NCBI GenBank assembly: GCA_046483985.1
Contig: JAWOCD010000056.1
Coordinates: forward strand, 32,780-96,779
DNA: 64,000 nt
From: Promethearchaeia archaeon
GTDB taxonomy: Archaea; Asgardarchaeota; Lokiarchaeia; Sigyniarchaeales; SOKP01
Direction of reading: 5' to 3'
In this document: in pieces, positions 21,413 to 43,621 of the stretch
How the letters are laid out: every line of letters starts with the position of its first letter
Numbering within the stretch: the stretch's first letter is position 1
Translations under genes and position numbers: made by a program
The notes under the pieces: generated by a model
Seen by the model: the letters and a program-made list of their open reading frames with translations, nothing else
Told to the model about the DNA's origin: nothing
The model's database searches: none

Positions 21413-21490
21413 AAAACATTTTTAATAATAATAAGTTTTATTAACTAATCCTTTATTTACCTTTTCGGACTTTTAAAAATTCATAACCCT

Positions 21491-21542: not shown

Positions 21543-21551
21543 TTTAAAGAT

Positions 21552-22783: not shown

Positions 22784-22853
22784 ATTTGGAAGAAAACAGA
22801 TTTATTAAAAAATCTTTACATTGTTAAAGTAATGAGACGGAAAAAATAGCCAA

Positions 22854-23087: not shown

Positions 23088-23353
23088 GTAATGTATTTAA
23101 ACCCCTTTTATTATCTAAATAAGTATAATTATGGCATGTACTAAAATCTAACAATTATAAGTTAAAAAAACTACTTTTATAAGGCAAAGAATTTACACCT
23201 TAACAATTTTAAGATTATTACATTAATTTATTGAATCTTAGGGTTAGTATATTCAAAAAGGAAATCATAATTGAGGAAATTTTAGAATATTATACAGTAT
23301 TTTAAAAAGAATTTAACATACATATATTATAAAAAGAATAAAGTGTATAAAAA

Positions 23354-24193: not shown

Positions 24194-24208
24194 GGTTGAA
24201 TATATTTG

Positions 24209-24399
24209 AAATGAATTTATCTGTGATGATAATGTCTCTGGTAAAGTGGACAAGAAATCCTCCAATAACAATAAGATCCAAAACTTTGCTATACTTAATT
24301 TAGTAGGTGATGGTTTGCATAATTTTTTGGATGGAATAATTATTATGGTTGGCTTTTTGACCGGAATTAATACTGGAATAATTATTACGCTTGCGGTAC
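24209..24399 (+). repeat. 191-bp duplicate of ZIP gene segment 23671-23861
   Basis: Direct alignment by eye shows 4 substitutions. Confidence 0.92.
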
Positions 24400-24495
24400 G
24401 GGATTTTTCTTCTTAATTCCCTTTTTCCATTTTTTTGCTGTTATAGAAAAAGGAGCATTCCAAGACCATGCGTCCGTTCCGATGATATGAACTCC
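24400..24495 (-). pseudogene. Fragment of a cyclase (kynurenine formamidase-like) family gene
   Basis: Minus frame reads GVHIIGTDAWSWNAPFSITAKKW, matching the GTDAWSWDAPF family motif. Confidence 0.55.
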
Positions 24496-24562
24496 CTATA
24501 AACGGTTGATCCATAATTATAGAAAATAGTAAATAAGAGATTTCTTTATAGAATCGATAAAA

Positions 24563-25363
24563 TCAGGTAGAGCGATATCTTGTGGGAATATCAGAAAATT
24601 TAATTCCCCTTTCTCTTAAAGCATCTTTTACTCGCATAGTTAAATTTGTCTTATATGCTCCTTGTTCTGTTGGATCTAGTGGATAGGATTTAATTCTATA
24701 ATGAGTACTTTGGGGTAATTCATTAACCCTTATTTTAATAGGCTTTTCCAGCTGTGTATATGGGCAAATAAACGTGACTCTTTCCATTATTTCCTTAACC
24801 ATATAAGAATCGTGATTTGGATCTAAATAAATATTTGTAACACACATCAAATTCCGCGATCCAGCATTAGCGTTATAAATTGTTGTATTCCAAATTTTCA
24901 ATTGCGGAATAATTACTTCAGTATTATCTAACGTTCTCATTTTTATTGTTCTTAACTTTATTGCTTCAATTTCACCATAAACACCATTAATCTCTATCCA
25001 ATCACCCTCCTGATAATTTTTTTCATATAAGGAGATTAAACCTGCGATAATACTACTTATATAATCTTTGAAGGCAAAACCAAGAGCAATACTCATTGCG
25101 GCTAATAATGTAATGATATTTACTTCGCTTGGCTGGGTAATAATTATCAGTACCCAAATCGTACCTAAAGCAATAATTATTAATCGAATAATCGGTTGTA
25201 AAGATAAATATTTATATTTCTGTTTTGCTTTTGTTTTTTTCTTTATATGATTAAACAATACCTTGTTAATTTTTAACAGAATAAAGATACCGATAATTAT
25301 GCCTGCTAGCAATATTAAATCTCCAATACTTAAATTTAGAAAAATATCAGTCGTCTCTGTCAT
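24563..25363 (-). CDS. mscS: Small-conductance mechanosensitive channel
   Basis: ALGFAFKDYISSIIAG, GDWIEINGVYGEI and LRT motifs. Confidence 0.9.
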   Translation of the reverse strand: MTETTDIFLNLSIGDLILLAGIIIGIFILLKINKVLFNHIKKKTKAKQKYKYLSLQPIIRLIIIALGTIWVLIIITQPSEVNIITLLAAMSIALGFAFKDYISSIIAGLISLYEKNYQEGDWIEINGVYGEIEAIKLRTIKMRTLDNTEVIIPQLKIWNTTIYNANAGSRNLMCVTNIYLDPNHDSYMVKEIMERVTFICPYTQLEKPIKIRVNELPQSTHYRIKSYPLDPTEQGAYKTNLTMRVKDALRERGIKFSDIPTRYRST

Positions 25364-26712
25364 TTGCTCACCTCCAAATTATCTATTAGGAATCCTACAG
25401 ATCTAAGATAATCCCTTACATTTGGGTATGCACTTGGAACAATATTTAATACATCTTCTTCTTTTCTTCTAATCAACCCATGTGTCTCTAAGTAATTTAT
25501 AATGGATACGACCTTTTTTGATTCTATATTTAAAATTAACGCAAGTTTTTCTTTAGAGAGACCGTTGTGGAGAATTAAAGAATCTAAGAGAATGTTTTCT
25601 TCACTGTTCATATTCTTAGGTATCTCAGGCATTGTTATACCTTTCCAGGGTTTTACCCAAATTGTATAAAATCTTTTTCTTTCTAATTTCACCTCTTCTT
25701 CTTTATCAAACTCAAAGTCTTCATCGGGTCTCGTTCTTAAATTATCCCTCAATATATGCCAGCAAATCATAGGTAATCCTTGTGCATATGCTATTAAATT
25801 TCTCATAAATTTATCTTCAACTTTTAATTGAATTTCTTCCTCAACCCCCTCCTTAGTTTTTAATTTGAGCTCGTCATCCTCATCCTGGACTATTAATTGT
25901 TCCATATTATTCTCTTTTTCAATTTTAGTTTTAATCTTATCGCCTTTTTCTTCTCCCATTTCTACTAATGACAATTGCTCTTCGAATATTAAATCCCCAC
26001 TATCTGTTAATCTATAGAGAAATTTTTTTCTATTGTTTTGAGCCATAAGATTCAATAACCAATGTTTTAAAGCAGATTCGTTCATTGTCTGCAAAATTCT
26101 TTGCTCAAAATTAGTAAAAGGAATATTAAGAATTTTGAAAAATTTCCACGCCCAAGATTGACATACGATAATGACCTCATTTGAATGTTTTGAAAGGTTT
26201 TGGACTATATTTTCTAAAAGCCCCAAACCATTGTGATGTCTGAGAAACCATTTTTCCAAATTTGTAATAGCAATATTTTCTTCTTCCCCGAGCTCAAAAA
26301 CATTATCTTTACGTTTATGATAATTTAAAATTTCTTCGTAAGTTGGAGGTGTTAATAACTTATAATTTGCTGTTTCTACCCATTTTTCTACTATTTGATC
26401 AGTTCCACTAAATGGTTTATTAATCAATAGAAGTTTCTTATAATCTATTTTATTTAATTCTTTTTGAAAATATTGAACCATTTCCTCCCAATCCGGTTCT
26501 GGTAAGATATTGTCTAATTGTCTTAAACTAAATGAATTTAATTTATTGTAAGATAGAAAATTCTCCTCTTTTGTCGATTTGAAAAGATTCCGAAACAAAC
26601 CTCCAATCTTTTCTTTGACTTCTCGGGGGCCTTGAGGGATTTCATAATCCTCTAATGGAATGACTCGGCAAAGATTAGGTACGTCCTTATCATCTTCTAC
26701 TTTTTCATTCAT
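25360..26712 (-). CDS. Hypothetical degenerate AAA-like protein with C-terminal wHTH, coupled to mscS
   Basis: LEKWFLRHHNGL, CQSWAW and GLP motifs; ATGA overlap with mscS. Confidence 0.6.
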   Translation of the reverse strand: MNEKVEDDKDVPNLCRVIPLEDYEIPQGPREVKEKIGGLFRNLFKSTKEENFLSYNKLNSFSLRQLDNILPEPDWEEMVQYFQKELNKIDYKKLLLINKPFSGTDQIVEKWVETANYKLLTPPTYEEILNYHKRKDNVFELGEEENIAITNLEKWFLRHHNGLGLLENIVQNLSKHSNEVIIVCQSWAWKFFKILNIPFTNFEQRILQTMNESALKHWLLNLMAQNNRKKFLYRLTDSGDLIFEEQLSLVEMGEEKGDKIKTKIEKENNMEQLIVQDEDDELKLKTKEGVEEEIQLKVEDKFMRNLIAYAQGLPMICWHILRDNLRTRPDEDFEFDKEEEVKLERKRFYTIWVKPWKGITMPEIPKNMNSEENILLDSLILHNGLSKEKLALILNIESKKVVSIINYLETHGLIRRKEEDVLNIVPSAYPNVRDYLRSVGFLIDNLEVSK

Positions 26713-26904
26713 GATTTATAAAGACTGGAGATTTATTCGATCTATTAAACATTATCACATAAAAATATTTTTAGAGATCTATTAAATGTTTCTTAATTCA
26801 TTGAAGGGAATTTTTAAAAAAAGATAATTCCTTGCGAACTGAAATTCGCTTAAAATACCGAAACTTCATATGTCAGATATCGCACGGGAAAAAATTACAA
26901 AAAC

Positions 26905-27158
26905 CTAAAGACCAAGCAGGATGATAAAATTGCTTCCTTGTGAATAATCTCCCTTCACGCGATTTTCTACCCAAACTTCTCCACCGTACATATTGATTAT
27001 TTCCTTCACAAGCGACAAACCGATGCCCGTCCCTTTCCCTTGTTGGTTTATTTCATACGATCGTTTAAAAATATCTTTTTTTCTCTGCTTGCTAATTCCG
27101 ATTCCATTGTCTTTAAATTCAATCTTAATATGATTTTGCCCCTCGTTTTGTACTTTAA
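26905..27158 (-). pseudogene. C-terminal HATPase_c fragment of a histidine kinase
   Basis: KDNGIGI, GTGIGL and GSNF boxes only; the ORF start lies inside the ZIP-derived repeat. Confidence 0.8.
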
Positions 27159-27201
27159 AGTTTTTACTCTTCCACATGCCTAAGGTCGAATAGATTTGAA
27201 A
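27159..27201 (+). repeat. 43-bp copy of the ZIP gene 3-prime end and flank (24169-24211)
   Basis: AGTTTTTACKCTTCCACATGCCTAAGGTYGAATAKATTTGAAA, 3 mismatches. Confidence 0.9.
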
Positions 27202-27373
27202 AAGATCATGCGAGAAAATCGATACGAGAATGTTAGTTTTTTACATTCGATTTAAGCAATTTTATGGAGATTATTTATTTGACTTGATTTCTTATCATTT
27301 ATTACATTGAAAAAGGGACTCATAGACCATTAATGCCTGGGATTTTTTAAATTTAATCAGAAATTTATTAATA

Positions 27374-27895
27374 ATGAAAACTGCAAACTCAATCACTTTA
27401 ATTGGGATGCCTGGCTCTGGAAAAACCACAATAGGACAAAAAATTGCACAGAAACTTCAATATAAGTTCATAGATACCGATGATTATATAGTAGAAAAAG
27501 AAAACATGGAGCTACAGCAGATTATAAATAAGGAAGGTATAGATGCTTTTTGTGAAATTGAGGAAAAGCGAGTTTTAGAATTACTCCCATTGAAGAAGTA
27601 TGTAATTGCCCCTGGTGGAAGTATTATTTATTCTAAGAAGGTTATGGACATCCTAAAGAAAAATAGTATCCTTATTTTTTTAGATGTTCCCCTTAACATA
27701 TTAAAAGCAAGATTACATAATATGGAAACCCGGGGTATAGTGGGACTGCATTCGAAATCCCTAAAAACATTATACAAAGAGAGGATACCCTTGTATCGAA
27801 AATATGCTGATTGTGTTGTCCCATGTGAAAATAAATCACCTAACACCATAATAACTGAGATCTTGGCCAGGTTAGATCGAATTAGATCGAAATAA
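27374..27895 (+). CDS. aroK: Shikimate kinase (bacterial type)
   Basis: LIGMPGSGKTT, FIDTD, GGS and ERIPLY motifs. Confidence 0.9.
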   Translation: MKTANSITLIGMPGSGKTTIGQKIAQKLQYKFIDTDDYIVEKENMELQQIINKEGIDAFCEIEEKRVLELLPLKKYVIAPGGSIIYSKKVMDILKKNSILIFLDVPLNILKARLHNMETRGIVGLHSKSLKTLYKERIPLYRKYADCVVPCENKSPNTIITEILARLDRIRSK

Positions 27896-28030
27896 ATTCT
27901 GTTATTAATGAACACCCTCACCATCAGAAAACTGCAAATAAGATTATTTTTTTTTTAGAATGCCTTATATGTTTTCTAAAACTTAATTATTATGATTATT
28001 CTTTTATAGAACAAAATAAAAAGAATCAAA

Positions 28031-29359
28031 ATGACGGAAAAAAAATCTGAAAAAAAGTTGGATGTAAAATTAATATCTTACATTGGGTTAGCATTTTTTA
28101 CGACTGGAATTGCATGGGGTCTTTATGATACACAGGTGAATCAACAGTTACAGAACTATGTGGGATTACTATTATTTGTTGGTTTTTGGATGGCATTGGA
28201 TAATATTATTGGTGTTTCTATTCAACCTTTTATGGGAGCACTCTCTGATAACACTCGAACTCGGTTTGGAAGAAGGACTCCGTATATCATTGTAGGAATT
28301 ATTGCCTCCGCTATTTTCTTTGCCTTAATACCGACGGGATTTGGAACTTCTTTCTGGATTTTGCTCCTCTGGATGTTCTTATTTGGAATCAGTATGGGGT
28401 TTTATCGCAGCCAAGCTGTAGCGTTGATGCCTGATTTTGTCAGACCCGAGAACCGGAGTAAAGCAAATGCCATTATTAATCTAATGGGAGGGGTGGGAGC
28501 CGTTGTTGCCTTTTCTCTCAGTTATCTAATTGACTATTGGGGCCATCAAGTTGTATTTCTCTTAGTTTCAATCATTATGTTGGTAGCCCTAGGAATTTTT
28601 CTCTGGAAAGTAAAGGAGACGGAGTCCTATAGTTACCAACTGTTGTTAGAAAAGGAGGGTAAAGCGAGTACAGAGTTGGAACCAGAAATTGGAAAGCCGA
28701 ATTTAATACAGAGTCTTAAAGACATCTGGAATGAGGATGACAAAAGTACCTTATTTATGCTTCTGGCGATCTTTTCATGGTTTATCGGATATCAAGGGAT
28801 ACAATCGCTTTTTACGATTTATGGAACCAGCCCAGAAACCCTTAATTTAGAGGCGGGGTTTGCGGGATTTATGCTTAATTTTGTTGCAATCCCCTTTATT
28901 CTATTTGCGGTTCCCTCTGGGATCATTGCTACAAAAATTGGGCGACGAATCACTATTAAAATAGGATTGGTCCTAATGTTCTCAAGCCTTGTAATTGGCT
29001 CTATAATAGTCCTCATTAGCCCGAACACGATAATTCTTATCATAGCCCTAGTTATGACTGGTATTGGATGGGCTCTGGTAAACGTAAATTCCATTGTGAT
29101 TATCTGGGAACTTGCCCCTACTATTGAGAAATTAGGAACATATACGGGGGTTTATTACTTTTTCAGTGTATTAGCCGCAATTATAGGCCCGGGAATTGTG
29201 GGACTTATTACGGATCTTACGGGGATCTCCTTTCTCCTGTTAAACGCCGCTGGCTTTTTAATTCTGGCCTTCATCTTTATGACGTTGGTTAAACGCGGGG
29301 AAGTCGAACTTACAGAAGAAGAAAGGATCGCCCGTCAAAAAGCCTTGCAAAAATTATAA
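28031..29359 (+). CDS. MFS transporter (GPH/SLC45 sugar transporter-like)
   Basis: QPFMGALSDNTRTRFGRRTPY; 12 TM segments. Confidence 0.88.
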   Translation: MTEKKSEKKLDVKLISYIGLAFFTTGIAWGLYDTQVNQQLQNYVGLLLFVGFWMALDNIIGVSIQPFMGALSDNTRTRFGRRTPYIIVGIIASAIFFALIPTGFGTSFWILLLWMFLFGISMGFYRSQAVALMPDFVRPENRSKANAIINLMGGVGAVVAFSLSYLIDYWGHQVVFLLVSIIMLVALGIFLWKVKETESYSYQLLLEKEGKASTELEPEIGKPNLIQSLKDIWNEDDKSTLFMLLAIFSWFIGYQGIQSLFTIYGTSPETLNLEAGFAGFMLNFVAIPFILFAVPSGIIATKIGRRITIKIGLVLMFSSLVIGSIIVLISPNTIILIIALVMTGIGWALVNVNSIVIIWELAPTIEKLGTYTGVYYFFSVLAAIIGPGIVGLITDLTGISFLLLNAAGFLILAFIFMTLVKRGEVELTEEERIARQKALQKL

Positions 29360-29465
29360 TCTTTCTCATTTCTTTTTTATAATCCTTTTTTTAGTTCCTA
29401 CTTATGGGAAATACGTACTTACAACTTATGAAACGAATTTGTATTGAGTTTAAAAAAATTGTACT

Positions 29466-29480
29466 TTGAATAATTATTAA
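29466..29480. promoter_or_regulatory. One-mismatch GAATAATTATTC operator upstream of the DUF89 gene
   Basis: TTGAATAATTATTAA next to TTTTTAAAT. Confidence 0.45.
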
Positions 29481-32745: not shown

Positions 32746-33639
32746 TTATTGATCTTCTTGATCCTTTTCCAAAATATTTCTGATCGTGTCCACAGATTTT
32801 TTAAATGCCTTAGCGCTCTTGCTGTCGGGGTATTTTACAACGAATGGTAATCCTTGGTCTCCTTGCTGTCCAATTTCGGTCTCAAATGGAATTTGTCCTA
32901 GCAGTCGAATATCAAAATCTTTTGCGGCTTTTTTTGCCCCTCCCGGCGGATATAAGTCAATATGTTCCCCACAGTGAGGACATTCAAATCCGCTCATATT
33001 TTCAATGATCCCGAGCACATCCCGTTCCATTTTTTCCGACATCGCAATTGTTTTACGGGCATCCATAAGGGCAACTTCTTGCGGAGTGGTTATGACAATT
33101 ACATGCTCATCGGGGATCAATTGTAATATATCCAGCGTCTCATCAGAAGTTCCTGGAGGTAAATCAAAAATCATATAATCTAGATCTCCCCAAATACAAT
33201 CACCGAGGAACTGTCGAATTGCTCCCATTTTCATAGGACCTCTCCAAATCACAGGAGTATCTTGATCTTCGGTTAAAAAGGACATAGATAATACTTTGAC
33301 GCCTAATGGTCCGTCCACGGGAAAAAACTTTTTATTATTCGTATCTACTCTTGGTTTTAATTCGGGGCTAATGCCTAACATTTTAGTCACATTTGCTCCA
33401 GTAATATCCACATCCATAATTCCTACTTTCAGTCCAACACTTGCTAAGCTCATCGCTAGATTGACTGCAACTGTTGTTTTTCCTACTCCCCCTTTTCCAC
33501 TAATGATTACCAATTTATGTTTTATCCTAGACATGTTTTTCTTGATTTCTTGCATCCGTTTCTTCATTTGTTCCTTTTTTCCTTGCTGAACTGTCTTATC
33601 CATATCTATCTTATCAGGAATGCCTTCCTTTTTACTCAT
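32746..33639 (-). CDS. mrp: Mrp/NBP35/ApbC Fe-S cluster carrier ATPase
   Basis: SGKGGVGKTT, VIWRGP, DLPPGTSD, TTPQ and ENMSGFECPHCG motifs. Confidence 0.95.
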   Translation of the reverse strand: MSKKEGIPDKIDMDKTVQQGKKEQMKKRMQEIKKNMSRIKHKLVIISGKGGVGKTTVAVNLAMSLASVGLKVGIMDVDITGANVTKMLGISPELKPRVDTNNKKFFPVDGPLGVKVLSMSFLTEDQDTPVIWRGPMKMGAIRQFLGDCIWGDLDYMIFDLPPGTSDETLDILQLIPDEHVIVITTPQEVALMDARKTIAMSEKMERDVLGIIENMSGFECPHCGEHIDLYPPGGAKKAAKDFDIRLLGQIPFETEIGQQGDQGLPFVVKYPDSKSAKAFKKSVDTIRNILEKDQEDQ

Positions 33640-33900: not shown

Positions 33901-33922
33901 TAATTGAATAATTATTCAATTA
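33901..33922. promoter_or_regulatory. Perfect 22-bp palindromic operator between divergent mrp and nifX-like operons
   Basis: TAATTGAATAATTATTCAATTA abutting a TTTAAATA TATA box. Confidence 0.7.
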
Positions 33923-33998: not shown

Positions 33999-34466
33999 AT
34001 GACAAAAATAGCGATACCTAGCTTTGGACAAGGCGGCTTGAATGTTCAAGTAAATCCTCGCTTTGGGCGAACTAAAAGTTTTACTATCGTCACAGTCGAG
34101 AAAGATAAAATTGAGAGCGTTAAAGCTGTTCCAAATTCTGCAGCAAATGCAATGGGTGGTGCTGGAATCCAAGCAGCACAAATTGTTGGGAATAATGGAG
34201 CTGATGTGATAATTGTTGGTAATGTCGGTCCAAATGCTGCTCAATCCTTAAGCGCCTTGAATCTCAAAATTTACCAAACCCCCTCAAGACAAATCACCGT
34301 CAAAGAAGCAGTTCAATTATACATAGATGGAGATTTAAATGAGATCAGCAATGCTAATGTCGGTGCCCATTATGGTATGGGTGGCGGTGGCGGTGGTCGC
34401 GGTATGGGCGGTGGTGGCGGTGGCGGTGGTCGCGGTATGGGCGGTGGCAGCCGCAGAAATCTTTAA
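33999..34466 (+). CDS. NifB/NifX family cofactor-binding protein with Gly-rich tail
   Basis: KIAIP, PRFGR, GGAGIQAAQ and GNVGPNA motifs; GMGGGGGGR repeats. Confidence 0.9.
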   Translation: MTKIAIPSFGQGGLNVQVNPRFGRTKSFTIVTVEKDKIESVKAVPNSAANAMGGAGIQAAQIVGNNGADVIIVGNVGPNAAQSLSALNLKIYQTPSRQITVKEAVQLYIDGDLNEISNANVGAHYGMGGGGGGRGMGGGGGGGGRGMGGGSRRNL

Positions 34467-34556: not shown

Positions 34557-35504
34557 ATGTCAAGTAAAGCAAAACCAATAAAGATTTGCATAACTGGCGG
34601 TAAAGGAGGGACAGGCAAAACGCTTTGTGCGGTAAATATTGCCAGCATGTTCAAGAACGATGGCTTCAAAACCTTATTATTGGACGGCGATGTGGAGAAT
34701 CCCAATACCTACTTATTACTTGGTGGAGAATTAGAAAATAAACAAGAAGTTCCGTTTTTTAAACCAAATATTGTTGAAGAAAAATGCGAAAAATGCGGAA
34801 AATGTGCTGAGAACTGCGCACCGCATGCCTTATTATATGTGAAGGGTAAAGTACCTATACCGATTCTGAATGTATGTTCTGGTTGTAAGTTATGTTATAA
34901 AATATGTCCAGCAGACGCAATAGAAGCGCAAACCAAACCAATCGGTTGGACATACTCAACCGAAGCAAGAGGAATTTCTCTCCGTGTCGGCGAGTTAAAA
35001 ACTGGGGAAGCACGCTCGGTCGAAGTTGTTGATACATTAATTGAAGACTTGGAAAAAGAGTTAAAGGAGTCACCCGAGAAATACGATATTATTGTATATG
35101 ATACTGCCCCTGGAGCACACTGTGATGTGGAATCTTTAATCGGGAAAGCCGACTATGTTATTCCTGTGACGGAGCCCACCAAATTTGGAAAATTAGATTT
35201 ATTACGGATAATTGAACTGATTAAGCTCCTGAAAAAAGATTATAAAGCAATTGTAAATCGATCCTCGCTCTTGGGATTTAAGGAGCAATTCATGAAGGAA
35301 CTTGAAGAACAAGATGTTAGTGTACTAGGCGATATTCCCCTCGATGACGAGATAGTAAAATCCTATTGCGATGGAGTTCCAATTATGGATGAAGATGGCA
35401 AATACGACCAAACCAGCGAAGGGTACAAGGCATTTCAAGAGATTTTCATAAATCTTAAGGAATGGATAAATCTTAATGATATTCAGACCGAGGGCGATAA
35501 TTAA
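34557..35504 (+). CDS. MinD-superfamily P-loop ATPase with inserted 2x[4Fe-4S] domain
   Basis: GGKGGTGKT, DGDVENPN, two CxxCxxCxxxC motifs, DTAPG and VTEPT. Confidence 0.92.
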   Translation: MSSKAKPIKICITGGKGGTGKTLCAVNIASMFKNDGFKTLLLDGDVENPNTYLLLGGELENKQEVPFFKPNIVEEKCEKCGKCAENCAPHALLYVKGKVPIPILNVCSGCKLCYKICPADAIEAQTKPIGWTYSTEARGISLRVGELKTGEARSVEVVDTLIEDLEKELKESPEKYDIIVYDTAPGAHCDVESLIGKADYVIPVTEPTKFGKLDLLRIIELIKLLKKDYKAIVNRSSLLGFKEQFMKELEEQDVSVLGDIPLDDEIVKSYCDGVPIMDEDGKYDQTSEGYKAFQEIFINLKEWINLNDIQTEGDN

Positions 35505-35505
35505 A

Positions 35506-36423
35506 ATGGAGAAAAAACAAATCGGTATTATATCGGGCAAAGGCGGCGTGGGAAAAACATCATTAACGGCATCTTTGGCATTCTTGGCAAAGCAAGATAA
35601 AGATGTAGACCCAATCATCTTGGATTGCGATGTGGATGCCCCCAATTTAGCTCTTATTTTACCTTCAGATGGAGAAGAGGACGAGAAGGAAGTGTATACT
35701 ACCTTAAAGGCCGAATTTTTAGAGGGTAAGTGCGTGCATTGTAAAGAATGTATAAACGAGCATTTCTGTGAATTCAATGCATTAAGCTGGGATGAGAAAA
35801 AAGAAGTCCCCGTCATTGATTACTTGGCGTGCGAGGGCTGTAATGCCTGTAAAGTTTTATGCCCTGAACACGCTTTCAAGATAGAACCGGTTAATAGCGG
35901 ACAAATAATTTCTTATATTTCAAAAATAGGACTTCCCCTTGTTTACGGCAGAACCCACTTAGGTAGTACCACCTCCGGTAAATTGGTGGATGAATGCAAA
36001 GAATTCACAAAAACACTGGACGAGTATGAAAATTCTAACTTATTAATCATTGATGGGCCCCCGGGGATTGGATGTCCCGTGATTGCAACCGTATCTGGAC
36101 TTGATTACGTAATTATCATTTGCGAGCCAACCCCTTCTGGGCTACACGATGTTAAACGGGCCATAGAAGTAGTCAAACAGTTCGAGATTCCTTTTGGAAT
36201 TGTGATCAATAAATACGATTTGAAAAGTTCATTCCAAGAGGAATTTAACGAATTTATAGAACGAACTGGTTATGATATTTTGGGAAAAATCCCATTCGAC
36301 ATCTCAATCCCGAAGGCAATGAGTCATACAGATGCGGTGGTCCAATATGCTCCAAAATCCGAAGCCAGTAAAGCAATTGAAAAGATCTATGAAAATTTGA
36401 AAAAGAAAATAAATAAACCTTGA
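35506..36423 (+). CDS. MinD-superfamily P-loop ATPase with inserted 2x[4Fe-4S] domain (second paralog)
   Basis: SGKGGVGKT, DCDVDAPN, ferredoxin Cys motifs, SGKLV and DGPPGIGCPV; start placed at the ATG after the upstream stop. Confidence 0.92.
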   Translation: MEKKQIGIISGKGGVGKTSLTASLAFLAKQDKDVDPIILDCDVDAPNLALILPSDGEEDEKEVYTTLKAEFLEGKCVHCKECINEHFCEFNALSWDEKKEVPVIDYLACEGCNACKVLCPEHAFKIEPVNSGQIISYISKIGLPLVYGRTHLGSTTSGKLVDECKEFTKTLDEYENSNLLIIDGPPGIGCPVIATVSGLDYVIIICEPTPSGLHDVKRAIEVVKQFEIPFGIVINKYDLKSSFQEEFNEFIERTGYDILGKIPFDISIPKAMSHTDAVVQYAPKSEASKAIEKIYENLKKKINKP

Positions 36424-36563: not shown

Positions 36564-37049
36564 ATGCCTCAAAATTTTATGGAATTGTATAAATATTTGC
36601 CGCAAACCAATTGTAAGAAATGCGGTAAACCAACATGCATGGCCTTCGCGTTAGACCTCCTGAAAGGGAAAGTAAGTCTCGAAGATTGTACCCCTTTAAT
36701 GGAAGAAGAGAAATATACGGATAAATTAGAGAAATTAAAGGAAATGTTGGGAGGGACGGGCGGTGAAGAAAAAGAATTACATATTGATATTGACGAAGAT
36801 GCTTGCGATGGATGTGGTATTTGTGTTACGGCTTGTCCAGTAAATGCGCGATATTGTCCTGCATCAACAAGTGGAAAAGCGCCAGATTATCCTCCCGATA
36901 AACATCAATTATTTCAAGTGGTAGATGGGGTCTGTGAACTTTTGAATCTTGAACACTGTCGTCGCCTTGCGGCTGAGGGTCGGGAACGGGAATGCCGCGT
37001 TTGTGAGGAGTATTGTCCACGCGAAAGTATTGAGATCGCATATGTTTAA
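36564..37049 (+). CDS. fwdG: FwdG-like 4Fe-4S protein fused to an N-terminal AcsC/RnfB-type Fe-S domain
   Basis: LPQTNCKKCGKPTCMAFA...C plus CDGCGICVTACPVNA...GK...VVDG...C...CRVCEEYCP. Confidence 0.7.
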   Translation: MPQNFMELYKYLPQTNCKKCGKPTCMAFALDLLKGKVSLEDCTPLMEEEKYTDKLEKLKEMLGGTGGEEKELHIDIDEDACDGCGICVTACPVNARYCPASTSGKAPDYPPDKHQLFQVVDGVCELLNLEHCRRLAAEGRERECRVCEEYCPRESIEIAYV

Positions 37050-37079
37050 TTAATTTAATAAGAGATGATATGAAAAAAT

Positions 37080-38384
37080 ATGAAAAGATTTATTTGTTGT
37101 GGTTGTTCTTTATTATGTGATGATGTATTAGTTGGTATGGACGGTTCTAAAATAGACAAGATGTTAGGTGTTTGCCTAAAAGGAAAAGAACGGATCGATC
37201 AGGTCAATTCGGAAAATCGAATTACCAAACCAATGATTCGAAAGGGGGGAGATCTGAAAGCAGTAGAATGGGAAAAAGCTATGGAAAAAGTGAAGGAACT
37301 TTTGGGAAAATCATCAAATCCTTTACTTTATGGATTTTCAAACTCAACTTGCGAGGCGCAAGCAAAAGCAATTGAACTAGCGCAAACTATCGATGGATAT
37401 ATTGATTCTAATTCAGCGATATGTCAAGGAAAGGTGATGGATGTAATTAAAGAAAAGGGCGTTAATTTGACTTCCCTCACAGAAATTCTTAATAAATCTG
37501 ATGTAATAACTCTTTGGGGAGCAAATCCCATAGAAAGTATTCCCCGATTAATTAATAAAATTTTATTTTCCCGTGGGAAGTTTCGAATGACCGGAAGGGA
37601 GATTAAGACGATAATAATCGTTGACCCCCTTAAAACGGCAAGTCGGGGGGTAATGCAAGTCCGTGACCTTGCATTGCAAATTGAACCAGATAAAGATTTA
37701 GAATTAATAAGAGTATTACAAGACAAATATAGAGAAGATAAACCCTTACCAGACAAGATCACTGGAATTGATAAATCAGATATAAAGAGATTTCTTCTTA
37801 ATCTAAGCAAAGCTGAGAACGGTGTAATTATCGTTGGACAAGGGCTTATTCACCCTCATGAAGGGAGAGAAACCTTAAATGAACTAATCCGGCTTGTGAA
37901 TCTAGTTAATGAGAACTCGGAAAAGGGCAGATTATCCTTGCTCATGATGGGGGGGCATTATAATATGGCAGGTTTTGAACAAATGGCATTAACGCTAACC
38001 GGAAAACATAATAGCATCCAATTTAAAAATGATCAATTACAAGACACAGATAAAACATTAGTGGATAAAATAGCAGATGAAGATTTTGATCTTTCTTTCT
38101 TTATGGGAACAGACCCTATTTCCCACTTTCCTTCGACTTTAAGTAAAAAAATAGCTTCAAAACCGATCATTGTTGCGGATAATCGGCAATCAGGAACCAC
38201 GATGTTGGCGGATGTCGTTCTCCCTACAGCAATTACTGGAGTTGAATGCGGTGGTACCGCGATTCGTCTCGACCAAGTACCAATAGAGGTTAAGGGCATC
38301 TTTGAACCACCTGAAAAGGTTCCAACAGATGAAGAATTGCTGACTAATATTATAGCAAAACAAACAGGAGGGGACGAAGAATGA
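37080..38384 (+). CDS. fwdB: Formylmethanofuran dehydrogenase subunit B-like (divergent)
   Basis: CCGCSLLCDD, PLLYGFSNSTCEAQ, WGANP, GHYN and GVECGGTAIRLDQVP motifs. Confidence 0.85.
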   Translation: MKRFICCGCSLLCDDVLVGMDGSKIDKMLGVCLKGKERIDQVNSENRITKPMIRKGGDLKAVEWEKAMEKVKELLGKSSNPLLYGFSNSTCEAQAKAIELAQTIDGYIDSNSAICQGKVMDVIKEKGVNLTSLTEILNKSDVITLWGANPIESIPRLINKILFSRGKFRMTGREIKTIIIVDPLKTASRGVMQVRDLALQIEPDKDLELIRVLQDKYREDKPLPDKITGIDKSDIKRFLLNLSKAENGVIIVGQGLIHPHEGRETLNELIRLVNLVNENSEKGRLSLLMMGGHYNMAGFEQMALTLTGKHNSIQFKNDQLQDTDKTLVDKIADEDFDLSFFMGTDPISHFPSTLSKKIASKPIIVADNRQSGTTMLADVVLPTAITGVECGGTAIRLDQVPIEVKGIFEPPEKVPTDEELLTNIIAKQTGGDEE

Positions 38385-38755
38385 AATTTAAGGTAAGTAG
38401 TATTCGGATGTTAGAGAACGATCAAGCTCGCGAGTACACCTTCGGGGACGAAGAGTCCTTTCAAAAGAACTTAGCGATTGGATTAATTCATCCCGATGAT
38501 TTTGAGGACCTCGGAATGACGAAAAGCTTGCCTCTTCATTTAAAAAATGAATTTGGGGAAGTAAACATATGGGTGAAAAGAGATGAGGGTGTCCCGAGAG
38601 GAAATATCTATATGCCAACCTCAATTTATTTTAACCAAATAAGCGGAGTGAAAAATGGAGAAATTGTCTATAAAAATGTAGAATGCGAGGCTCGTCCCAC
38701 TCGTGATCAGCCATTAAAAAGGGAAAAATTACTCGAAAAAATTAAAGAATCTTAA
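38381..38755 (+). CDS. fwdD: Formylmethanofuran dehydrogenase subunit D-like (divergent)
   Basis: IHPDDFEDLG...NEFGEV...VPRGNIYMP double-psi barrel pattern; overlaps the fwdB stop. Confidence 0.8.
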   Translation: MKFKVSSIRMLENDQAREYTFGDEESFQKNLAIGLIHPDDFEDLGMTKSLPLHLKNEFGEVNIWVKRDEGVPRGNIYMPTSIYFNQISGVKNGEIVYKNVECEARPTRDQPLKREKLLEKIKES

Positions 38756-38767
38756 AGGTGTTAAAAA

Positions 38768-40402
38768 ATGAGCAAACTAATAATAAAAAAAGGAACAGTT
38801 GTCGATCCTCTTAATGAAATTGAAGGGGAAACTAAAGATATTTTAATAGAAGATGGCAAGATTGTAGAAAAGTTTTCAAATGAAAGCGATATAAAGGAAA
38901 TTGATGCATCTGGTAAAACAGTTATACCTGCCGCAGTAGATACTCATACGAATGTTGCATCGCAGCAAGTAAACTGGGCACGATTATTAGGATCAGCAAA
39001 TCAACAATTTAGGGAAACGTGGGGGGATTTTTCTCTTTCCACGATTTCACGGGATTATATTGCAAATGGGTATACATTTATATTGGAAACCAATGTTTTC
39101 CCCTCATTTGCAAAACAAACTCATTTAAATTTTCAATACTTACCCGTCTTGGATAAAGCAATATCATTAAATGTAAGTAATTTATGGGCTTTAGAATCCG
39201 AATACCAAAAAAATCATTATAAGCAAGCCGCAGTTTTTTTGGGGGATTTAGTGAAACGAACTAAAAGTTATGGGCTTAGCAGTATTAACCCCTTTGAAGC
39301 GGAAGAGTGGAATCTTAAGAACTTACGGGAAGACATCAAGCAGGAGGGTCGATTATATAACTTTTTAGGGATCGATGTTTATGAAACGCTCATAGAAGCA
39401 AATGAACAGTTGGGACTTCCCAATTCGGTTCAAGCTCATATAGAGGGTTATGAAGCATCTAACGCCAAAAATAATCTAAAAATTCTCCTTGACAAGGTTG
39501 AATCCTTGGAACTTGATTTTAGTGAACAAGCCGAACGAAGTCATATTGTTCAGATTATGGACGCTCCTTCGCTGAATACCGGTGAAAATAATGAAGAGTT
39601 TATCCAAGCAATAAATGGGTCAAACCGAATTAATATCGATTTAAGCGTGATAGGTTTTGACGAGATTAATCCCCTCATTACTTCAGATCGCAGGTTATAT
39701 AATAAATATAATGAAACACAGGAAGTTATTCAATCTGGGATGGAAATGGAAGGAGATTTATTTGTTACTCTGAGAAAGTTTGATAAACAAGAAGCCCTCT
39801 TTTCCACATTATGGGCTAATGCAATCGATTTGGCCTTAAATATTGAAGATAAATGGAAGGTTCAATTATCCTATAGCTTTCCGAATTATAGTCATCCCAA
39901 TAAAGCTCCCGAAATAGCGACATGGCTACTCAGTCCCAAAGCAAGAAAAAAATTCATTGATAAATTAAATCCAGAGGGTATTCTTGATTCGGTTAAAAAA
40001 AGCGATGATCGCTTAAGTTTTACAGAATATGTAATTATTACCAGAGCTGGACCAGCACAATCAATTGGACTGGGGGATATGAAAGGAAATCTCGGAATTG
40101 GAGCAGATGGCGATTTAAATATATTGGACCTGAATGTTACAGAAATTGATTTTTCTTCAGATTATGACAAGGTAAAAAGCGCCTTTGAAAATATCGAATG
40201 CGTGGTAAAAAGCGGGGAAATAGTCAAACAAGGTAAAACCATTGATCTCTCGACCAACGGTAAAATATTTTGGTCAGAAAGGACAGCTGGAGAGAGTAAA
40301 TCCATTATGAGCAAGAAAAGGAAATTCTATGCTAAATTCGGAGCGAATTTTTATGATCAGTTATCAACAAAGGTTCCTGATGAGCTGTTAAGAAAGATTT
40401 AA
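38768..40402 (+). CDS. fwdA: Formylmethanofuran dehydrogenase subunit A-like amidohydrolase-fold protein (metal ligands mostly substituted)
   Basis: IIKKGTVVDPLN...DILIEDGKIV...IDASGKTVIP, LGLPNS and ITRAGPA..GL...KGNLGIGADGD motifs. Confidence 0.85.
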   Translation: MSKLIIKKGTVVDPLNEIEGETKDILIEDGKIVEKFSNESDIKEIDASGKTVIPAAVDTHTNVASQQVNWARLLGSANQQFRETWGDFSLSTISRDYIANGYTFILETNVFPSFAKQTHLNFQYLPVLDKAISLNVSNLWALESEYQKNHYKQAAVFLGDLVKRTKSYGLSSINPFEAEEWNLKNLREDIKQEGRLYNFLGIDVYETLIEANEQLGLPNSVQAHIEGYEASNAKNNLKILLDKVESLELDFSEQAERSHIVQIMDAPSLNTGENNEEFIQAINGSNRINIDLSVIGFDEINPLITSDRRLYNKYNETQEVIQSGMEMEGDLFVTLRKFDKQEALFSTLWANAIDLALNIEDKWKVQLSYSFPNYSHPNKAPEIATWLLSPKARKKFIDKLNPEGILDSVKKSDDRLSFTEYVIITRAGPAQSIGLGDMKGNLGIGADGDLNILDLNVTEIDFSSDYDKVKSAFENIECVVKSGEIVKQGKTIDLSTNGKIFWSERTAGESKSIMSKKRKFYAKFGANFYDQLSTKVPDELLRKI

Positions 40403-40465
40403 GGTCTAATTTTTTCATTTTTTTCTCCTATTTTTTGAAATTTATGCCGCAGCTTCTCAGATTTT

Positions 40466-40996
40466 TTACTGTTTGTCAAGATAATAAATTGCGGGCAAAT
40501 TCCGATATCGCTCATTAAAATCCAGCCCGTATCCAACCAGAAATTTATTTGGTACTTTAAATCCTAAATAATCTATTTCAATATCTTTTTCTCTTCTTGC
40601 GGGTTTACTAGTTAAAGTACAGATATTAATGGATACAGGATTTCTCTGATTTAAATAATCTACCAAGAAATTCATAGTGATGCCCGTATCTATGATATCT
40701 TCTACGATAATTAAATGCCTTTCTTCAATGGTTTCCTCAATATCTTTTTCGATTTTAACCTCTCCACTGCTTTCTGTATCGCTGCCGTAACTTGACACTT
40801 CGATAAAGTTAATTTCCAAGTCCATTTCAATTTGGCGCACAAGGTCTGCTAAAAAAATAAATGCACCTTGAAGTACTCCCAACAATAGAGGGTTTTTTCC
40901 TTGAAAATCGCGATAAATTTGATCCGCCAATTCTTTTACTTTAGTTTTGATTTCTTCCTCGGAAATTAATATTTTTAGGTTTTGCGGGGATTTCAT
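40466..40996 (-). CDS. hpt: Hypoxanthine phosphoribosyltransferase
   Basis: GVLQGAFIFLADL, VSSYG, IVEDIIDTGIT and FLVGYGLD; start may alternatively be 41047. Confidence 0.95.
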   Translation of the reverse strand: MKSPQNLKILISEEEIKTKVKELADQIYRDFQGKNPLLLGVLQGAFIFLADLVRQIEMDLEINFIEVSSYGSDTESSGEVKIEKDIEETIEERHLIIVEDIIDTGITMNFLVDYLNQRNPVSINICTLTSKPARREKDIEIDYLGFKVPNKFLVGYGLDFNERYRNLPAIYYLDKQ

Positions 40997-41060
40997 AGTT
41001 TGGTTTACCCTTTCAAGTAGCAATAATTGATTCTCATATATTTTCATTTAATTGAATTCT

Positions 41061-41088
41061 ACAATATACAATACACAATACACAATAT
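41061..41088. repeat. Four tandem heptamers ACAATAY
   Basis: acaatat acaatac acaatac acaatat. Confidence 0.8.
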
Positions 41089-41310
41089 CCTCTATAATCT
41101 TTTGTTTTCCATTTAAATATCAAGGAATTATGAAATATGAGTAATATTGGGAATATCTTAAATTGGTCAAACCTTTGATCTTCTTATCCATTTATTTTAT
41201 AGGAAATCTTGAAAATAAAGACTGTTTCCCCAAGATTTAATTAAAAGGTGAGAAATCAATATCAGCCTTCTTATGGAGGATATCTGCAAGAATCTAAAAA
41301 CAAGTTAAAA

Positions 41311-41339
41311 GGGCAATCCTAATATGTCTTAGATTGCCC
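41311..41339 (-). terminator. Hairpin downstream of the VWA gene, T-rich on both sides
   Basis: GGGCAAT(C)CTAA-loop-TTAGATTGCCC. Confidence 0.5.
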
Positions 41340-41391
41340 AATAGTCTTTTTTTCTAGTTTGGAAAATGAAAAACAGATTTGAAATTCCAAG

Positions 41392-42630
41392 TTAATAACT
41401 AAAGGATTTTAACTTTTCTACAGTGGTATACATATTTTTTCCGCTCTTGCGCAAATAGTCCATTGCATCTTCGATTCCCTCAACAGTTAGATCAAAAGTA
41501 GGGATGATACTACTAATCACTTTCCGCGTCCACGGGAGCCAATCGAAGCGAAGTATTTCCGGATTTAACCAAACAATATGATTGCGAAAATGTTGTTCCA
41601 ATTGTTTGATATAATAAATTCCGGGCATCTCGTTCCGATGGTAATAATAAATTGACCCGTACTTTGCGGTGAGCTCATAACTTGCCATCGCTTGATCTCC
41701 TACACAGACAACGCGGTAGGAGTTGTCATATTTTCTGAGGAATTCATCAAACTTAATAGACTCCTCCGACCTTCTTTGCGCAGTTTCGAATAATTTTTCA
41801 TAAATACAATTGTGGAAGTAATAATGTTCGAAATCCTTCCAGTGAGACATTTGATTGGCAGCCGAAAAAAGGCGATTTACCAAATGAGCGTATGGATCCA
41901 TTGATCCGCCCACATCCATAAGGAGTAATAATTTTACATTATTCTTTCGTTTTTTGCGAAAGACAAGTTCGATATCCCCCCCATTCTTACAGGTCTTGTC
42001 AATGGTCTCATCCAAATCGAGCTCATCTTCTTTCCCGATTTCGTCCAACTTTCTTAAACGTTTTAGTGCCACTTTTATTTGTCTGGTGTCCAACACAATA
42101 TCTTTTCGATAATTTTGAAATACGCGTTCATGGGCTATTTGAATGGCCGTTCTCATTCCTGAGCTTCCGCCAACCCGCATCCCCATCGGATTCCTTCCGC
42201 CGTGTCCAAACTCTGAAGTCCCACCAGTACCTATCCACTGGGAGCCAAGGTTATGCTCCTCATCTTGTCGTTTTAATAAATCCTCGAAATGTTGCTGCAT
42301 TCCTGCAAGGTCAAATTCTCCCAAAACATCTTGGAATTCTTCAGGAAATCTCTCCACTTCTTCGGGGTTTATATCCTTTTCCAACCAGTCCCAAATTTGC
42401 TTTTTTATTTCCCCGGGAAAATTCAAATGGGCATCCTTAAAAAAATTCGCAAACGCTACATCATAAACATCAAACAAATGCTCATTCTTGCATAAAATGG
42501 AGCGGGAGATATAATAAAATTGGACCATATTTCTAATTAAGCCCTTATCTAAGGCTTCTAACAGCGTCAGATATTCATGGACGCTTACCGGCAATCTCTC
42601 ACGTAAGTAATAAAAATAATCAATAAACAT
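41392..42630 (-). CDS. VWA domain protein, CoxE-like MoxR partner
   Basis: WIGTGGTS-x-FG, ELDLDETI, MIDAS DVGGSM, YFHNC, VGD and WLNP motifs. Confidence 0.88.
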   Translation of the reverse strand: MFIDYFYYLRERLPVSVHEYLTLLEALDKGLIRNMVQFYYISRSILCKNEHLFDVYDVAFANFFKDAHLNFPGEIKKQIWDWLEKDINPEEVERFPEEFQDVLGEFDLAGMQQHFEDLLKRQDEEHNLGSQWIGTGGTSEFGHGGRNPMGMRVGGSSGMRTAIQIAHERVFQNYRKDIVLDTRQIKVALKRLRKLDEIGKEDELDLDETIDKTCKNGGDIELVFRKKRKNNVKLLLLMDVGGSMDPYAHLVNRLFSAANQMSHWKDFEHYYFHNCIYEKLFETAQRRSEESIKFDEFLRKYDNSYRVVCVGDQAMASYELTAKYGSIYYYHRNEMPGIYYIKQLEQHFRNHIVWLNPEILRFDWLPWTRKVISSIIPTFDLTVEGIEDAMDYLRKSGKNMYTTVEKLKSFSY

Positions 42631-42653
42631 TTGTTTTATATAAAGAATATTTT

Positions 42654-43508
42654 TTAAATGGGGAACTTAACCTTTTTAAGTGCTAGGTCAAGATCACGCT
42701 CTTTTTTGATTAACACACCAAGGAATGGGATTTCTTTCTTTAACTCTTCGATTGAAATGCCACTTTTCAACAATACACCGATCCAATCCAGTAATTCAGA
42801 AGTGGAAGGCATCTTACGTAGCTGGGTAATCGCTCTTAACTTGTAGAATGATTCCAAACATTGTTTTAAGAGGTTCTGCTTTAAGTTGGGATAATGAATG
42901 TTACAGATATCAGCCATGAAGTCTTTGTCCGGAAATTCGATGTAATGGAACACACATCTTCGCAAGAACGCATCCGGTAGTTCCTTTTCGTTATTGGATG
43001 TAATAATAACAATCGGTCGCGTCTTGGCCTTCACAAATTCATCGGTTTCTTTAATATAGAATTCCATTTGGTCTAATTCTTGAAGCAAGTCATTTGGAAA
43101 TTCAATATCGGCTTTGTCGATCTCATCTATTAGAAGAACCACTTGTTCCTCTGAGAGGAAGGCTTGACCTAATGGTCCGTATGAAATATAATCCTTGATA
43201 TTGTTTACGTCTCTCTCGTCACTGCCAAATCGACTATCATTTAGCCGTTGAACGGTGTCATATTTATAACAGCCGTCAATGGCTTCTGTCGTGCTCTTAA
43301 TGTTCCATACAATAAGTTCCTTGTCTAAAGCTTCTGCTACAGCATGTGCTAATAGGGTTTTTCCTGTCCCTGGCTCTCCCTTGACAAGAAGTGGACGCTC
43401 TAAGGCAATAGCTGTATTAACTATGTTCCTCAAGTTCGGATCCGCGATGTACTTCACGTTCTCCGTATTTACATTTCCTTGGAACTTATCAAATGTATAT
43501 TTGCTCAT
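42654..43508 (-). CDS. MoxR family AAA+ ATPase (CoxD-like)
   Basis: GEPGTGKT, LLIDEIDKAD, FPNDLL and LPDAFLRRC motifs. Confidence 0.93.
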   Translation of the reverse strand: MSKYTFDKFQGNVNTENVKYIADPNLRNIVNTAIALERPLLVKGEPGTGKTLLAHAVAEALDKELIVWNIKSTTEAIDGCYKYDTVQRLNDSRFGSDERDVNNIKDYISYGPLGQAFLSEEQVVLLIDEIDKADIEFPNDLLQELDQMEFYIKETDEFVKAKTRPIVIITSNNEKELPDAFLRRCVFHYIEFPDKDFMADICNIHYPNLKQNLLKQCLESFYKLRAITQLRKMPSTSELLDWIGVLLKSGISIEELKKEIPFLGVLIKKERDLDLALKKVKFPI

Positions 43509-43560
43509 AATTCTTAAAATGAATAAAAAATTATATATTTTTTCGATTAATTGCCCATAG

Positions 43561-43621
43561 TATAGTCTTTTAGAAAAACTTTTTTACATTTTTAAATCTG
43601 TCTTTTCTAAGTTACAACAAC
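43561..43621 (+). mobile_element. Remnant of the TATAGTC-ended MITE-like repeat
   Basis: About 60 nt similar to 55106-55167. Confidence 0.45.

Follow-up and report, generated by a model that had tools for sequence, protein, structure and literature searches.

A Fwd-derived four-gene cassette with replaced catalytic residues and an eroded metal site in a Promethearchaeia genome

The DNA analysed here (the window) is a stretch of 64,000 nucleotides from a Promethearchaeia archaeon (assembly GCA_046483985.1, contig JAWOCD010000056.1, positions 32,780 to 96,779). Positions 36564-40402 of its + strand carry four genes that resemble those of formylmethanofuran dehydrogenase (Fwd), the CO2 reductase of the Wood-Ljungdahl pathway, and residues on which Fwd chemistry depends are altered in their products. 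This raises the question of what such a set is kept for. The initial annotation had described it as an intact, catalytically rewired fwdG-B-D-A operon lacking fwdC. We propose that the cassette encodes a four-subunit Fwd-derived complex, a ferredoxin-linked Mo/W-pterin oxidoreductase that would act on a substrate other than CO2 or formate, with its FwdA-like subunit as a scaffold in this lineage. We put the probability of this reading, which is built on sequence comparison, at about 45%.

The four genes of the cassette are:
36564-37049, + strand: Fe-S gene (161 aa), profile match to PF04060 and Fer4
37080-38384, + strand: B' gene, FwdB-like (434 aa), profile match to TIGR03129
38381-38755, + strand: D' gene, FwdD-like (124 aa), profile match to PF01568
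38768-40402, + strand: A' gene, FwdA-like (544 aa), profile match to TIGR03121, below cut-off

The initial annotation was right that this is an intact, closely packed and non-canonical operon. All four frames are open and free of stops, with a gap of 30 bases between the Fe-S and B' genes, an overlap of 4 bases between B' and D', and a gap of 12 bases between D' and A'. The residues were checked by alignment with solved Fwd/Fmd chains and with the canonical Fwd proteins of the same genome, and every substitution listed earlier was found in the cassette proteins. The absence of fwdC was also borne out. No FwdC gene occurs in the cassette, neither in the window nor in 22 related loci, and the only FwdC gene of the genome that scored above cut-off adjoins canonical FwdB.

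A canonical fwd set, which the initial annotation had suggested looking for elsewhere, is present on contig C98 of the same genome. Its FwdA scored 773 bits, and polyferredoxin, FwdD, FwdB and FwdC genes form a cluster. The canonical motifs are HSH, KIVNPGG, HLTHCQF and TDHPN in FwdA, CHG, HPRH and RGHYN in FwdB, and TGR and GPWAN in FwdD. The canonical genes occupy two places on this one contig, with fwdA (C98:29601-31289) approximately 40 kb from fwdF-D-B-C (70836-72942).

The B' protein matched TIGR03129 with 352.9 bits, above the cut-off of 327.8; canonical FwdB of the genome scored 595 bits. Its alignment to the solved chain 5T5I_B was full-length and unambiguous (E 4e-73). The reference site of FwdB comprises Cys118, His119 and Arg288, of which His119 and Arg288 are catalytic in M. 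wolfeii (PMC6926001). B' retains the [4Fe-4S] residues Cys6, 9, 13 and 32 and the metal-ligand Cys115, all aligned to 5T5I_B residues, and it has Gln116 in place of the catalytic His and Gly291 in place of the catalytic Arg. It reads ESIPRL where canonical FwdB reads HAHPRH. This agrees with the initial annotation, in which the metal Cys and the N-terminal 4Fe-4S Cys were kept and the CHG, HPRH and RGHYN motifs altered.

These changes are not private to the window. All 18 canonical FwdB representatives in a wide alignment kept the C-H...R pattern. In every member of the B' clade examined, the ligand Cys was invariant, as were all four cluster Cys, and the replacements themselves recurred: His was replaced by Gln in 15 and Arg by Gly in 17 of 19 related loci, the window and its close relative L011 being excluded from the count. 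B' of the window and of L011 share both Gln and Gly. The tree showed the B' clade to be monophyletic with full support; the first branch is a genus that keeps Cys-His with Thr for Arg, and the window with L011 branches next. A search of 1.84 billion cluster representatives with B' turned up just one full-length 50% cluster from its own clade (566 bits); the next match scored 287. The B' substitutions look ancestral and conserved over a family-wide clade. Since conserved replacements surround an invariant ligand Cys, the site looks redesigned rather than dead. Gln and Gly occupy the positions at which all CO2/formate enzymes carry His and Arg, and on this ground the B'D' site may serve a substrate other than CO2 or formate.

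The D' protein matched PF01568 (Molydop_binding) with 28.5 bits (cut-off 26.8) and the curated FwdD model NF042908 with 30.1 bits, below the cut-off of 175. It has S7-I8-R9 for TGR and SIYFN for GPWAN. The two replacements are as the initial annotation gave them; the loss of TGR is only partial, since the Arg is kept. In an alignment of 23 sequences, the consensus of the D' clade was TVR and SIWAN, and SIR with SIYFN was found in the sublineage of the window.

The same residues can be taken to mean that the complex is redox-inactive, B'D' holding no pterin and the set being kept as an Fe-S scaffold for electron transfer, storage or sensing, in line with the proposal of the initial annotation. 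Both residues for CO2/formate chemistry are gone from B', the pterin-contact motifs of D' are altered, and the Fe-S subunit is the best conserved of the four. In the wider FwdB-like family, the ligand Cys was lost in 84 of approximately 130 representatives, so catalytic loss is common there. Within the B' clade, however, the ligand Cys was invariant in the members examined and lies in the motif N-S-x-I-C-Q-G-K, and the Gln and Gly replacements are themselves conserved, not random. The cap D' is kept and translationally coupled to B'. The known inactive subunit, FhcB, lost the ligand Cys, the Fe-S domain and the D cap (PMC6926001), whereas B'D' kept all three. The name "pseudo-Fwd" in the initial annotation thus overstates the degeneration of the redox half. 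The particular roles that it offered, such as sensing or regulation of canonical Fwd, are possible. We regard a redox-inactive complex as improbable, and prefer the oxidoreductase reading.

The A' protein matched TIGR03121 with 269.8 bits, below the cut-off of 392.75, and NF042911 with 239 against 950. Its alignments to the solved chains 7BKB_G (E 4e-57) and 5T5I_A (E 4e-55) were full-length and unambiguous. The reference ligands of the A subunit are four His, one Asp and a carboxy-Lys (Fhc structure paper, PMC6926001). At the HxH motif A' reads H60-T61-N62, in which H60 is retained and the second His is replaced by N62. S171 replaces the carboxy-Lys. The positions of the strand-5 His pair hold Q222 and H224, and the ligand H224 is retained. 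In the H.TH.QF motif, Q262 and D265 replace two His, and the strand-6 ligand is now an Asp. S370 replaces the strand-8 Asp of TDHPN. Four of the six ligands are lost (N62, S171, D265 and S370 by alignment), including the carboxy-Lys and the Asp, and the earlier statement that most binuclear metal ligands are gone is correct. For H.TH.QF, its register was off by three residues; the loss of the ligand there stands. Judged from these residues, a carboxy-Lys-bridged binuclear centre cannot form in A' of the window.

A possible objection, raised with the initial annotation, was that the ligands might be retained at shifted positions. The predicted structure spoke against it. The AlphaFold2 model of A', built with an alignment, had a predicted local distance difference test score (pLDDT) of 89.8 and a predicted template modelling score (pTM) of 0.92, and the replacing residues sit at the predicted ends of the barrel strands, where the ligands belong. 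Foldseek gave template modelling (TM) scores of 0.89–0.90 to 8RJA_A, 5T5I_A and 7BKB_G, and of 0.86 to FhcA (6S6Y). The Atlas model for A' had a pTM of 0.90 and a TM score of 0.92. In the model, the fold is predicted to be kept and the ligands are gone, rather than moved by a register shift.

The loss of the metal site has another history than the changes in B'. Among 120 A' homologs, 117 keep HxH, Lys and all four His, and only the Asp is changed to Asn (SxNFPNY); these orthologs thus keep five of the six ligand positions. We infer that the catalytic Asp had already become Asn in the ancestor of the clade. Ligand loss was limited to three sequences, namely the window, P0005 (locus L011) and P0006. 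In P0006 (59% identical), the Lys is gone, as is one His from either pair, and the strand-8 position holds an Asp. P0005 (68% identical) and the window both lack the Lys, the two strand-6 His and the Asn, a loss common to the two, and the second HxH His is missing from the window alone. From these sequences, the erosion of the A' site is stepwise within one small sublineage, and D' shows the same pattern. Conservation of the substitutions is therefore a mixed result: the B' changes are clade-wide, and the A' ligand loss is limited to the window and two relatives. As far as the alignments go, the window stands apart in that A' and D' have eroded further. Since the metal site of A' was lost under continued selection, the site appears dispensable and the retained role of A' structural. 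A' of the window lineage would then be a non-catalytic structural subunit bound to B'.

Fhc (FhcABCD of Methylorubrum extorquens, 6S6Y; PMC6926001) is likewise derived from Fwd; one of its catalytic halves became a scaffold, and its genes are conserved. FhcA shares the fold of A' (TM 0.86). It is active and keeps His57/59/229/258, Asp377 and carboxy-Lys176 (PMC6926001), and the contrast drawn by the initial annotation, in which only the B subunit of Fhc is degenerate and A stays active, is correct. The polarity of the cassette is opposite: ligand Cys, cluster and cap persist on the B' side, whereas A' of the window has lost its ligands. The proposed arrangement would reverse that of Fhc, where B is the scaffold and A the enzyme. 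Unlike Fhc, the cassette has no equivalents of FhcC or FhcD.

For the A' subunit alone, collapsin response mediator/dihydropyrimidinase-like (CRMP/DPYSL) proteins offer a comparison. They have the amidohydrolase fold in common with A' and were among its structural and sequence matches. Having lost their metal ligands, CRMP/DPYSL are non-catalytic binding proteins, which gives a precedent for A' as a pseudoenzyme. Unlike A', they are eukaryotic regulators of the cytoskeleton, they belong to no redox complex, and they are distant (TM 0.42–0.44).

The tungsten/molybdenum Fwd/Fmd complexes of methanogens (FwdABCDFG/FmdABCD; 5T5I, 7BKB, 8RJA) are among the nearest known systems, and the cassette has A, B and D subunits homologous to theirs. 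Like them, it has an N-terminal [4Fe-4S] site and a Cys at the metal position in B', a separate D cap, and a ferredoxin-type subunit, which is encoded first. The A-B contact is also alike, being predicted with high confidence in the cassette. Unlike them, it has no FwdC, its electron subunit is of the RnfB/CdhE type and not FwdG or FwdF, B' has Gln and Gly for His and Arg, the Asp of the A subunit is replaced throughout the clade, and A' of the window lacks the carboxy-Lys and two further His.

This comparison bears on the possibility that the cassette is a true Fwd isoenzyme, or a Fhc-like formyl-methanofuran hydrolase, acting on the normal C1 substrates. Methanogens carry Mo and W isoenzymes of Fwd, and the homology of the cassette to Fwd/Fmd/Fhc subunits is full-length. 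B' lacks both His and Arg, however, and A' lacks four of the six ligands and scores below its family cut-off. No FwdC gene adjoins the cassette, and no formyltransferase gene (FhcD/Ftr) adjoining it was found among the open reading frames or in profile searches of the window. We consider this possibility very unlikely. An identity with Fhc was ruled out from the loss of the A' ligands, the retention of the B' redox features and the lack of an adjoining formyltransferase gene.

The protein search found more than 120 Asgard proteins that were 50–68% identical to A'. High-scoring A' (>500 bits) was detected in approximately 115 of the 134 other genomes of the GTDB family to which the window belongs. 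The 400 genomes examined from the phylum gave no such match in any further family, including the one that holds the closed 4.4 and 6.0 Mb genomes. The order Fe-S, B', D', A' was observed in 21 of the 23 distinct related loci with readable neighbours. The two exceptions are a solitary extra A' and a short contig that ends inside B'. These comparisons showed that the cassette is a lineage-specific paralog beside canonical Fwd, with a gene order conserved across one Lokiarchaeia-type family.

The solitary gene, L050 (G272:C38:4159-5820, - strand), encodes a ligand-intact A' without B', D' or Fe-S neighbours and lies between genes for a major facilitator superfamily (MFS) transporter and an M28 peptidase. 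A further, partial A' was found on a different contig of that genome. In another genome of the family, a single contig that is 81% complete, the A' match (G187:C1:1519059-1520618) starts at residue 38. No FwdB-like or FwdC gene was found in that genome, and its lineage may be losing the system.

Canonical FwdA was above the cut-off in 110 of the 135 family genomes. A' was found without canonical FwdA in 19 of the 135, four of which are at least 97% complete; three of these four have both canonical FwdB and FwdC, and in the fourth FwdC was found and canonical FwdB was not. Conversely, at least 11 family genomes have canonical FwdA without the cassette. In four of the canonical FwdA matches (G237:C46, G261:C17, G262:C47 and G216:C35) there is one in-frame TGA each, for which selenocysteine, an error in sequencing and a disrupted gene are all possible explanations.

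These counts touch on another reading, in which the cassette is an accessory module of canonical Fwd that would assemble with canonical FwdC or with the whole complex, as an electron-input branch or a regulator. The cassette never includes FwdC, whose single gene lies beside canonical FwdB, and mixed assemblies are conceivable because canonical FwdA is encoded 40 kb from FwdF-D-B-C. A ligand-intact A' could also stand in for FwdA and serve FwdBCD in the 19 genomes without canonical FwdA. This number of absences, however, is near the number predicted by genome incompleteness (mean completeness approximately 86%), and A' of the window, judged by its missing ligands, cannot replace FwdA. The genomes with canonical FwdA and no cassette indicate that the two sets are independent of each other. 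The cassette brings Fe-S, B and D subunits of its own, and it is this self-contained unit that is conserved.

Other Asgard variants lend this reading some support, as they sit with HdrA/MvhD and polyferredoxin genes. These variants (L066, G307:C8; L068, G116:C3; L069, G114:C11; L077/L078) have an Fe-S partner of the PF04060 type that is 43–47% identical to that of the cassette. Like the cassette, they have a B protein without the Arg (Cys-His or Cys-Gln) and no FwdC. Unlike the cassette, their order is D-A ... Fe-S-B and they are Hdr-linked: L066, L077 and L078 have a polyferredoxin gene and an HdrA/MvhD-like gene between the two halves, and L077 and L078 also have HdrB/C alongside. Their A and B proteins are nearer to canonical Fwd than to this clade, and the tree places them apart from the B' clade. 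Non-canonical FwdB proteins thus repeatedly have a PF04060-type Fe-S protein as their partner. In the wider FwdB-like family, several separate lineages pair Cys-Gln with loss of the Arg. On balance, we think an accessory module unlikely, and a separate oxidoreductase remains our preferred reading.

The divergence of the cassette was compared with that of L011. The ratio of nonsynonymous to synonymous substitution rates (dN/dS) between the window and L011 was 0.065 for B', 0.045 for D' and 0.11 for A' (NG86, used where pairs were saturated) and 0.044 for the Fe-S gene (YN00); these values are rough, because dS is saturated near 2. Ligand-intact pairs gave similar dN/dS. Between the window and L011, 11–32% of the residues differ, yet all four frames are open in both. 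The A' identity of this pair was 67.6%; judged from its B' identity, the trend that other lineages follow predicts 67.0%. A' of the window was approximately 6 points further from the other members than those are among themselves, a small excess. By these sequence measures, the cassette is under purifying selection and is not decaying. The view of the initial annotation that selection maintains the cassette was confirmed, and relaxed selection on the window copy, which had been named as a possible refutation, was not observed.

An operon in decay, in which the window copy would be a recently inactivated duplicate on its way to pseudogenes, scarcely accounts for these data. The progressive loss of A' ligands in the sublineage, beginning with Lys and one His, continuing with two more His and the Asn, and ending with H62 in the window alone, and the divergence of D' at the WAN motif agree with decay. 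All four frames, however, are open in three lineages that are 59–68% identical in A', the fold is predicted with confidence, and RNA libraries contain contigs that are nearly identical. Decay into pseudogenes was rejected on the low dN/dS (0.04–0.11, with dS saturated) and on an A' divergence that lies on the clade trend.

The RNA evidence comes from three metatranscriptome libraries of two salt-lake studies, in which contigs at least 99% identical to the window were found. They cover parts of the NifX-like gene upstream of the cassette and parts of B', D' and A', with one contig spanning the junction of the Fe-S and B' genes; positions 39612-43600 are uncovered, a gap that says nothing about the downstream genes. 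This hints that the cassette is transcribed, and carry-over of DNA is also possible.

A two-chain structure prediction was made for B' and A'. The ipSAE was 0.95, and the best control reached 0.00. This mark is passed by 58 of the 80 solved complexes and by 2 of the 110 mismatched pairs. The runs agreed in at least 92% of the contacts, and the pLDDT of the partner was at least 91. The predicted pass may reflect likeness to the solved Fwd, Fmd and Fhc complexes rather than binding.

The first gene had been named fwdG in the initial annotation, and this name did not hold. FwdG is a plain two-cluster ferredoxin of approximately 80 residues and was ruled out, as the product here has 161 aa and an N-terminal PF04060 domain. 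The Pfam profiles PF04060 and Fer4 matched with 53.9 and 39.5 bits, and the RnfB model TIGR01944 matched with 47.8 bits, below its cut-off. The best family matches were CdhE/RnfB, with no Fwd ferredoxin. The N-terminal RnfB/CdhE-type domain has four Cys (Cys17, 20, 25 and 42), and the ferredoxin-like part has ten further Cys. This protein is the best conserved of the four, with a mean identity of 71% to clade members and 89% to L011. It is likely to be the electron-entry subunit of the complex.

The cassette lies next to a metallocofactor assembly cluster, as the initial annotation had proposed. The neighbouring features are:
32746-33639, - strand: Mrp/NBP35-type Fe-S cluster carrier ATPase (PF10609, 309.6 bits), divergent from the NifX-like gene
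33906-33917, no strand assigned: perfect palindrome GAATAATTATTC in the intergenic region between the mrp and nifX-like genes, a possible operator
33999-34466, + strand: NifX/orange-protein-like protein with a Nitro_FeMo-Co domain (PF02579, 75 bits), first gene of the upstream cluster
34557-35504, + strand: MinD/ParA-type P-loop ATPase with a two-cluster ferredoxin insert, Orp3/Orp4-like (CbiA, ParA, Fer4)
35476-36423, + strand: second MinD/ParA-type ATPase with a ferredoxin insert, Orp3/Orp4-like (PF10609, 80.8 bits, and Fer4), overlapping the previous gene
40466-41047, - strand: hypoxanthine phosphoribosyltransferase gene, between A' and the VWA/AAA pair
41392-42630, - strand: CoxE-like VWA protein (PF05762, 41.5 bits), convergent downstream
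42654-43508, - strand: AAA+ ATPase paired with the VWA protein (PF00004, PF07728)

The Mrp/NBP35, NifX-like and two MinD-type genes resemble the orange protein (ORP) cluster of Desulfovibrio vulgaris (Orp3/4, Orp8, Orp9/MrpORP; PMC6345978). The layout in two divergent units is shared, as are a pair of MinD-like ATPases, each with two [4Fe-4S] motifs, a Nitro_FeMo-Co protein and an Mrp/NBP35 protein. Unlike in the ORP cluster, Mrp and Nitro_FeMo-Co are separate proteins, the MrpORP model scores at most 72 bits against a cut-off of 450, and no equivalent of Orp5 was seen. At 10 of 22 loci, spread over several genera, the NifX-like gene and the two MinD-ferredoxin genes lie next to the cassette. 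Mrp adjoins it in 6 of the 22 (5 besides the window); at the 5 other loci, the homologs are 70–76% identical and lie divergently upstream.

The VWA gene adjoins the cassette in 5 of the 22 loci (4 besides the window) and its AAA partner in 4 (3 besides the window), and the AAA gene of the window is 83% identical to AAA genes at three related loci. An unrelated FwdB-like gene with C-Q-G, from another metagenome, lies beside MoxR-AAA, CbiA and VWA_CoxE genes. The VWA protein may be a maturation partner of the metal site, though this link is weak. The NCBIfam names MadB/MadC for the AAA/VWA pair were rejected, as the scores were far below the cut-offs and the literature gave only unrelated Mad proteins.

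Taken together, we speculate that the complex would work as follows. The RnfB/CdhE-type Fe-S subunit would exchange electrons with ferredoxin, in either direction. The [4Fe-4S] cluster in B' would relay the electrons to a Mo/W-bis-pterin site with a Cys ligand, made up jointly of B' and its cap D'. The ORP-like Mrp, NifX and MinD-ferredoxin genes, and perhaps those for the CoxE-like VWA protein and the AAA protein, would be candidate maturation factors.

Several observations weigh against this oxidoreductase. That B'D' binds Mo/W-bis-pterin is inferred indirectly, from the retained Cys, the D' cap and the Fe-S domain. The pterin site could be drifting too in the sublineage, as the WAN contact of D' has changed to SIYFN. 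B' retained a fraction of 0.68 of the columns conserved in canonical FwdB and relatives without the ligand Cys 0.65, which gives no separation and says nothing about pterin binding. In the solved complexes FwdC bridges the subunits, and without it the cassette proteins may assemble differently or make use of FwdC from the canonical set. In A', a mononuclear site (H60, H224 and D265) may persist. The predicted A'-B' interface was no more conserved than the rest of the proteins (0.50 against 0.55 in A', 0.64 against 0.57 in B'); 819 of 10000 random sets did as well. Because this comparison takes in buried core residues, it speaks neither for nor against the contact. Finally, the links to neighbouring genes are weak and serve as leads only, because synteny within one family is mostly inherited and gene adjacency is weak functional evidence.

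A further step, which we take with considerable doubt, would be to see here, in sediment Lokiarchaeia, a new type of Mo/W-pterin enzyme that arose from the Wood-Ljungdahl CO2 reductase. It would have a Cys-Gln site without the Arg, be fed by an RnfB-like subunit, have dedicated ORP-like and CoxD/E-like maturation, and carry in this lineage a scaffold A' that mirrors Fhc. No description of the paralog was found in the literature searched. A survey of the dimethyl sulfoxide (DMSO) reductase superfamily lists 83 Asgard FwdB homologs, which are not separated (PMC10100899).

The cassette matters for the reading of Asgard genomes. Metabolic reconstructions of this phylum count any fwdA or fwdB match as Wood-Ljungdahl CO2 reduction. 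There are two sets in this large family, one of them apparently unfit for CO2 chemistry, and copy numbers and pathway calls need a check of the active site. The cassette also gives a rare view of the two halves of a two-site enzyme diverging. The redox half would have been redesigned and then frozen, and the amide-forming half first disabled (Asp to Asn), with the metal site then lost in one sublineage under continued selection. Should the redox half be active, anoxic sediments would hold an unassigned Mo/W enzyme in one of their most abundant archaeal groups.

In the window, 13 sites match the palindrome GAATAWWTATTC with one mismatch or none, where 3.8 would be expected (sites 33906-33917, 17767-29479); none of them precedes the Fe-S gene of the cassette. 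A scan for bacterial sigma-70 promoters and terminators is not meaningful for an archaeon and was left unused. The hypoxanthine phosphoribosyltransferase gene downstream of A' was found only in the window and in L011 (6056-6586); at other loci, VWA/AAA or other genes directly follow A'.

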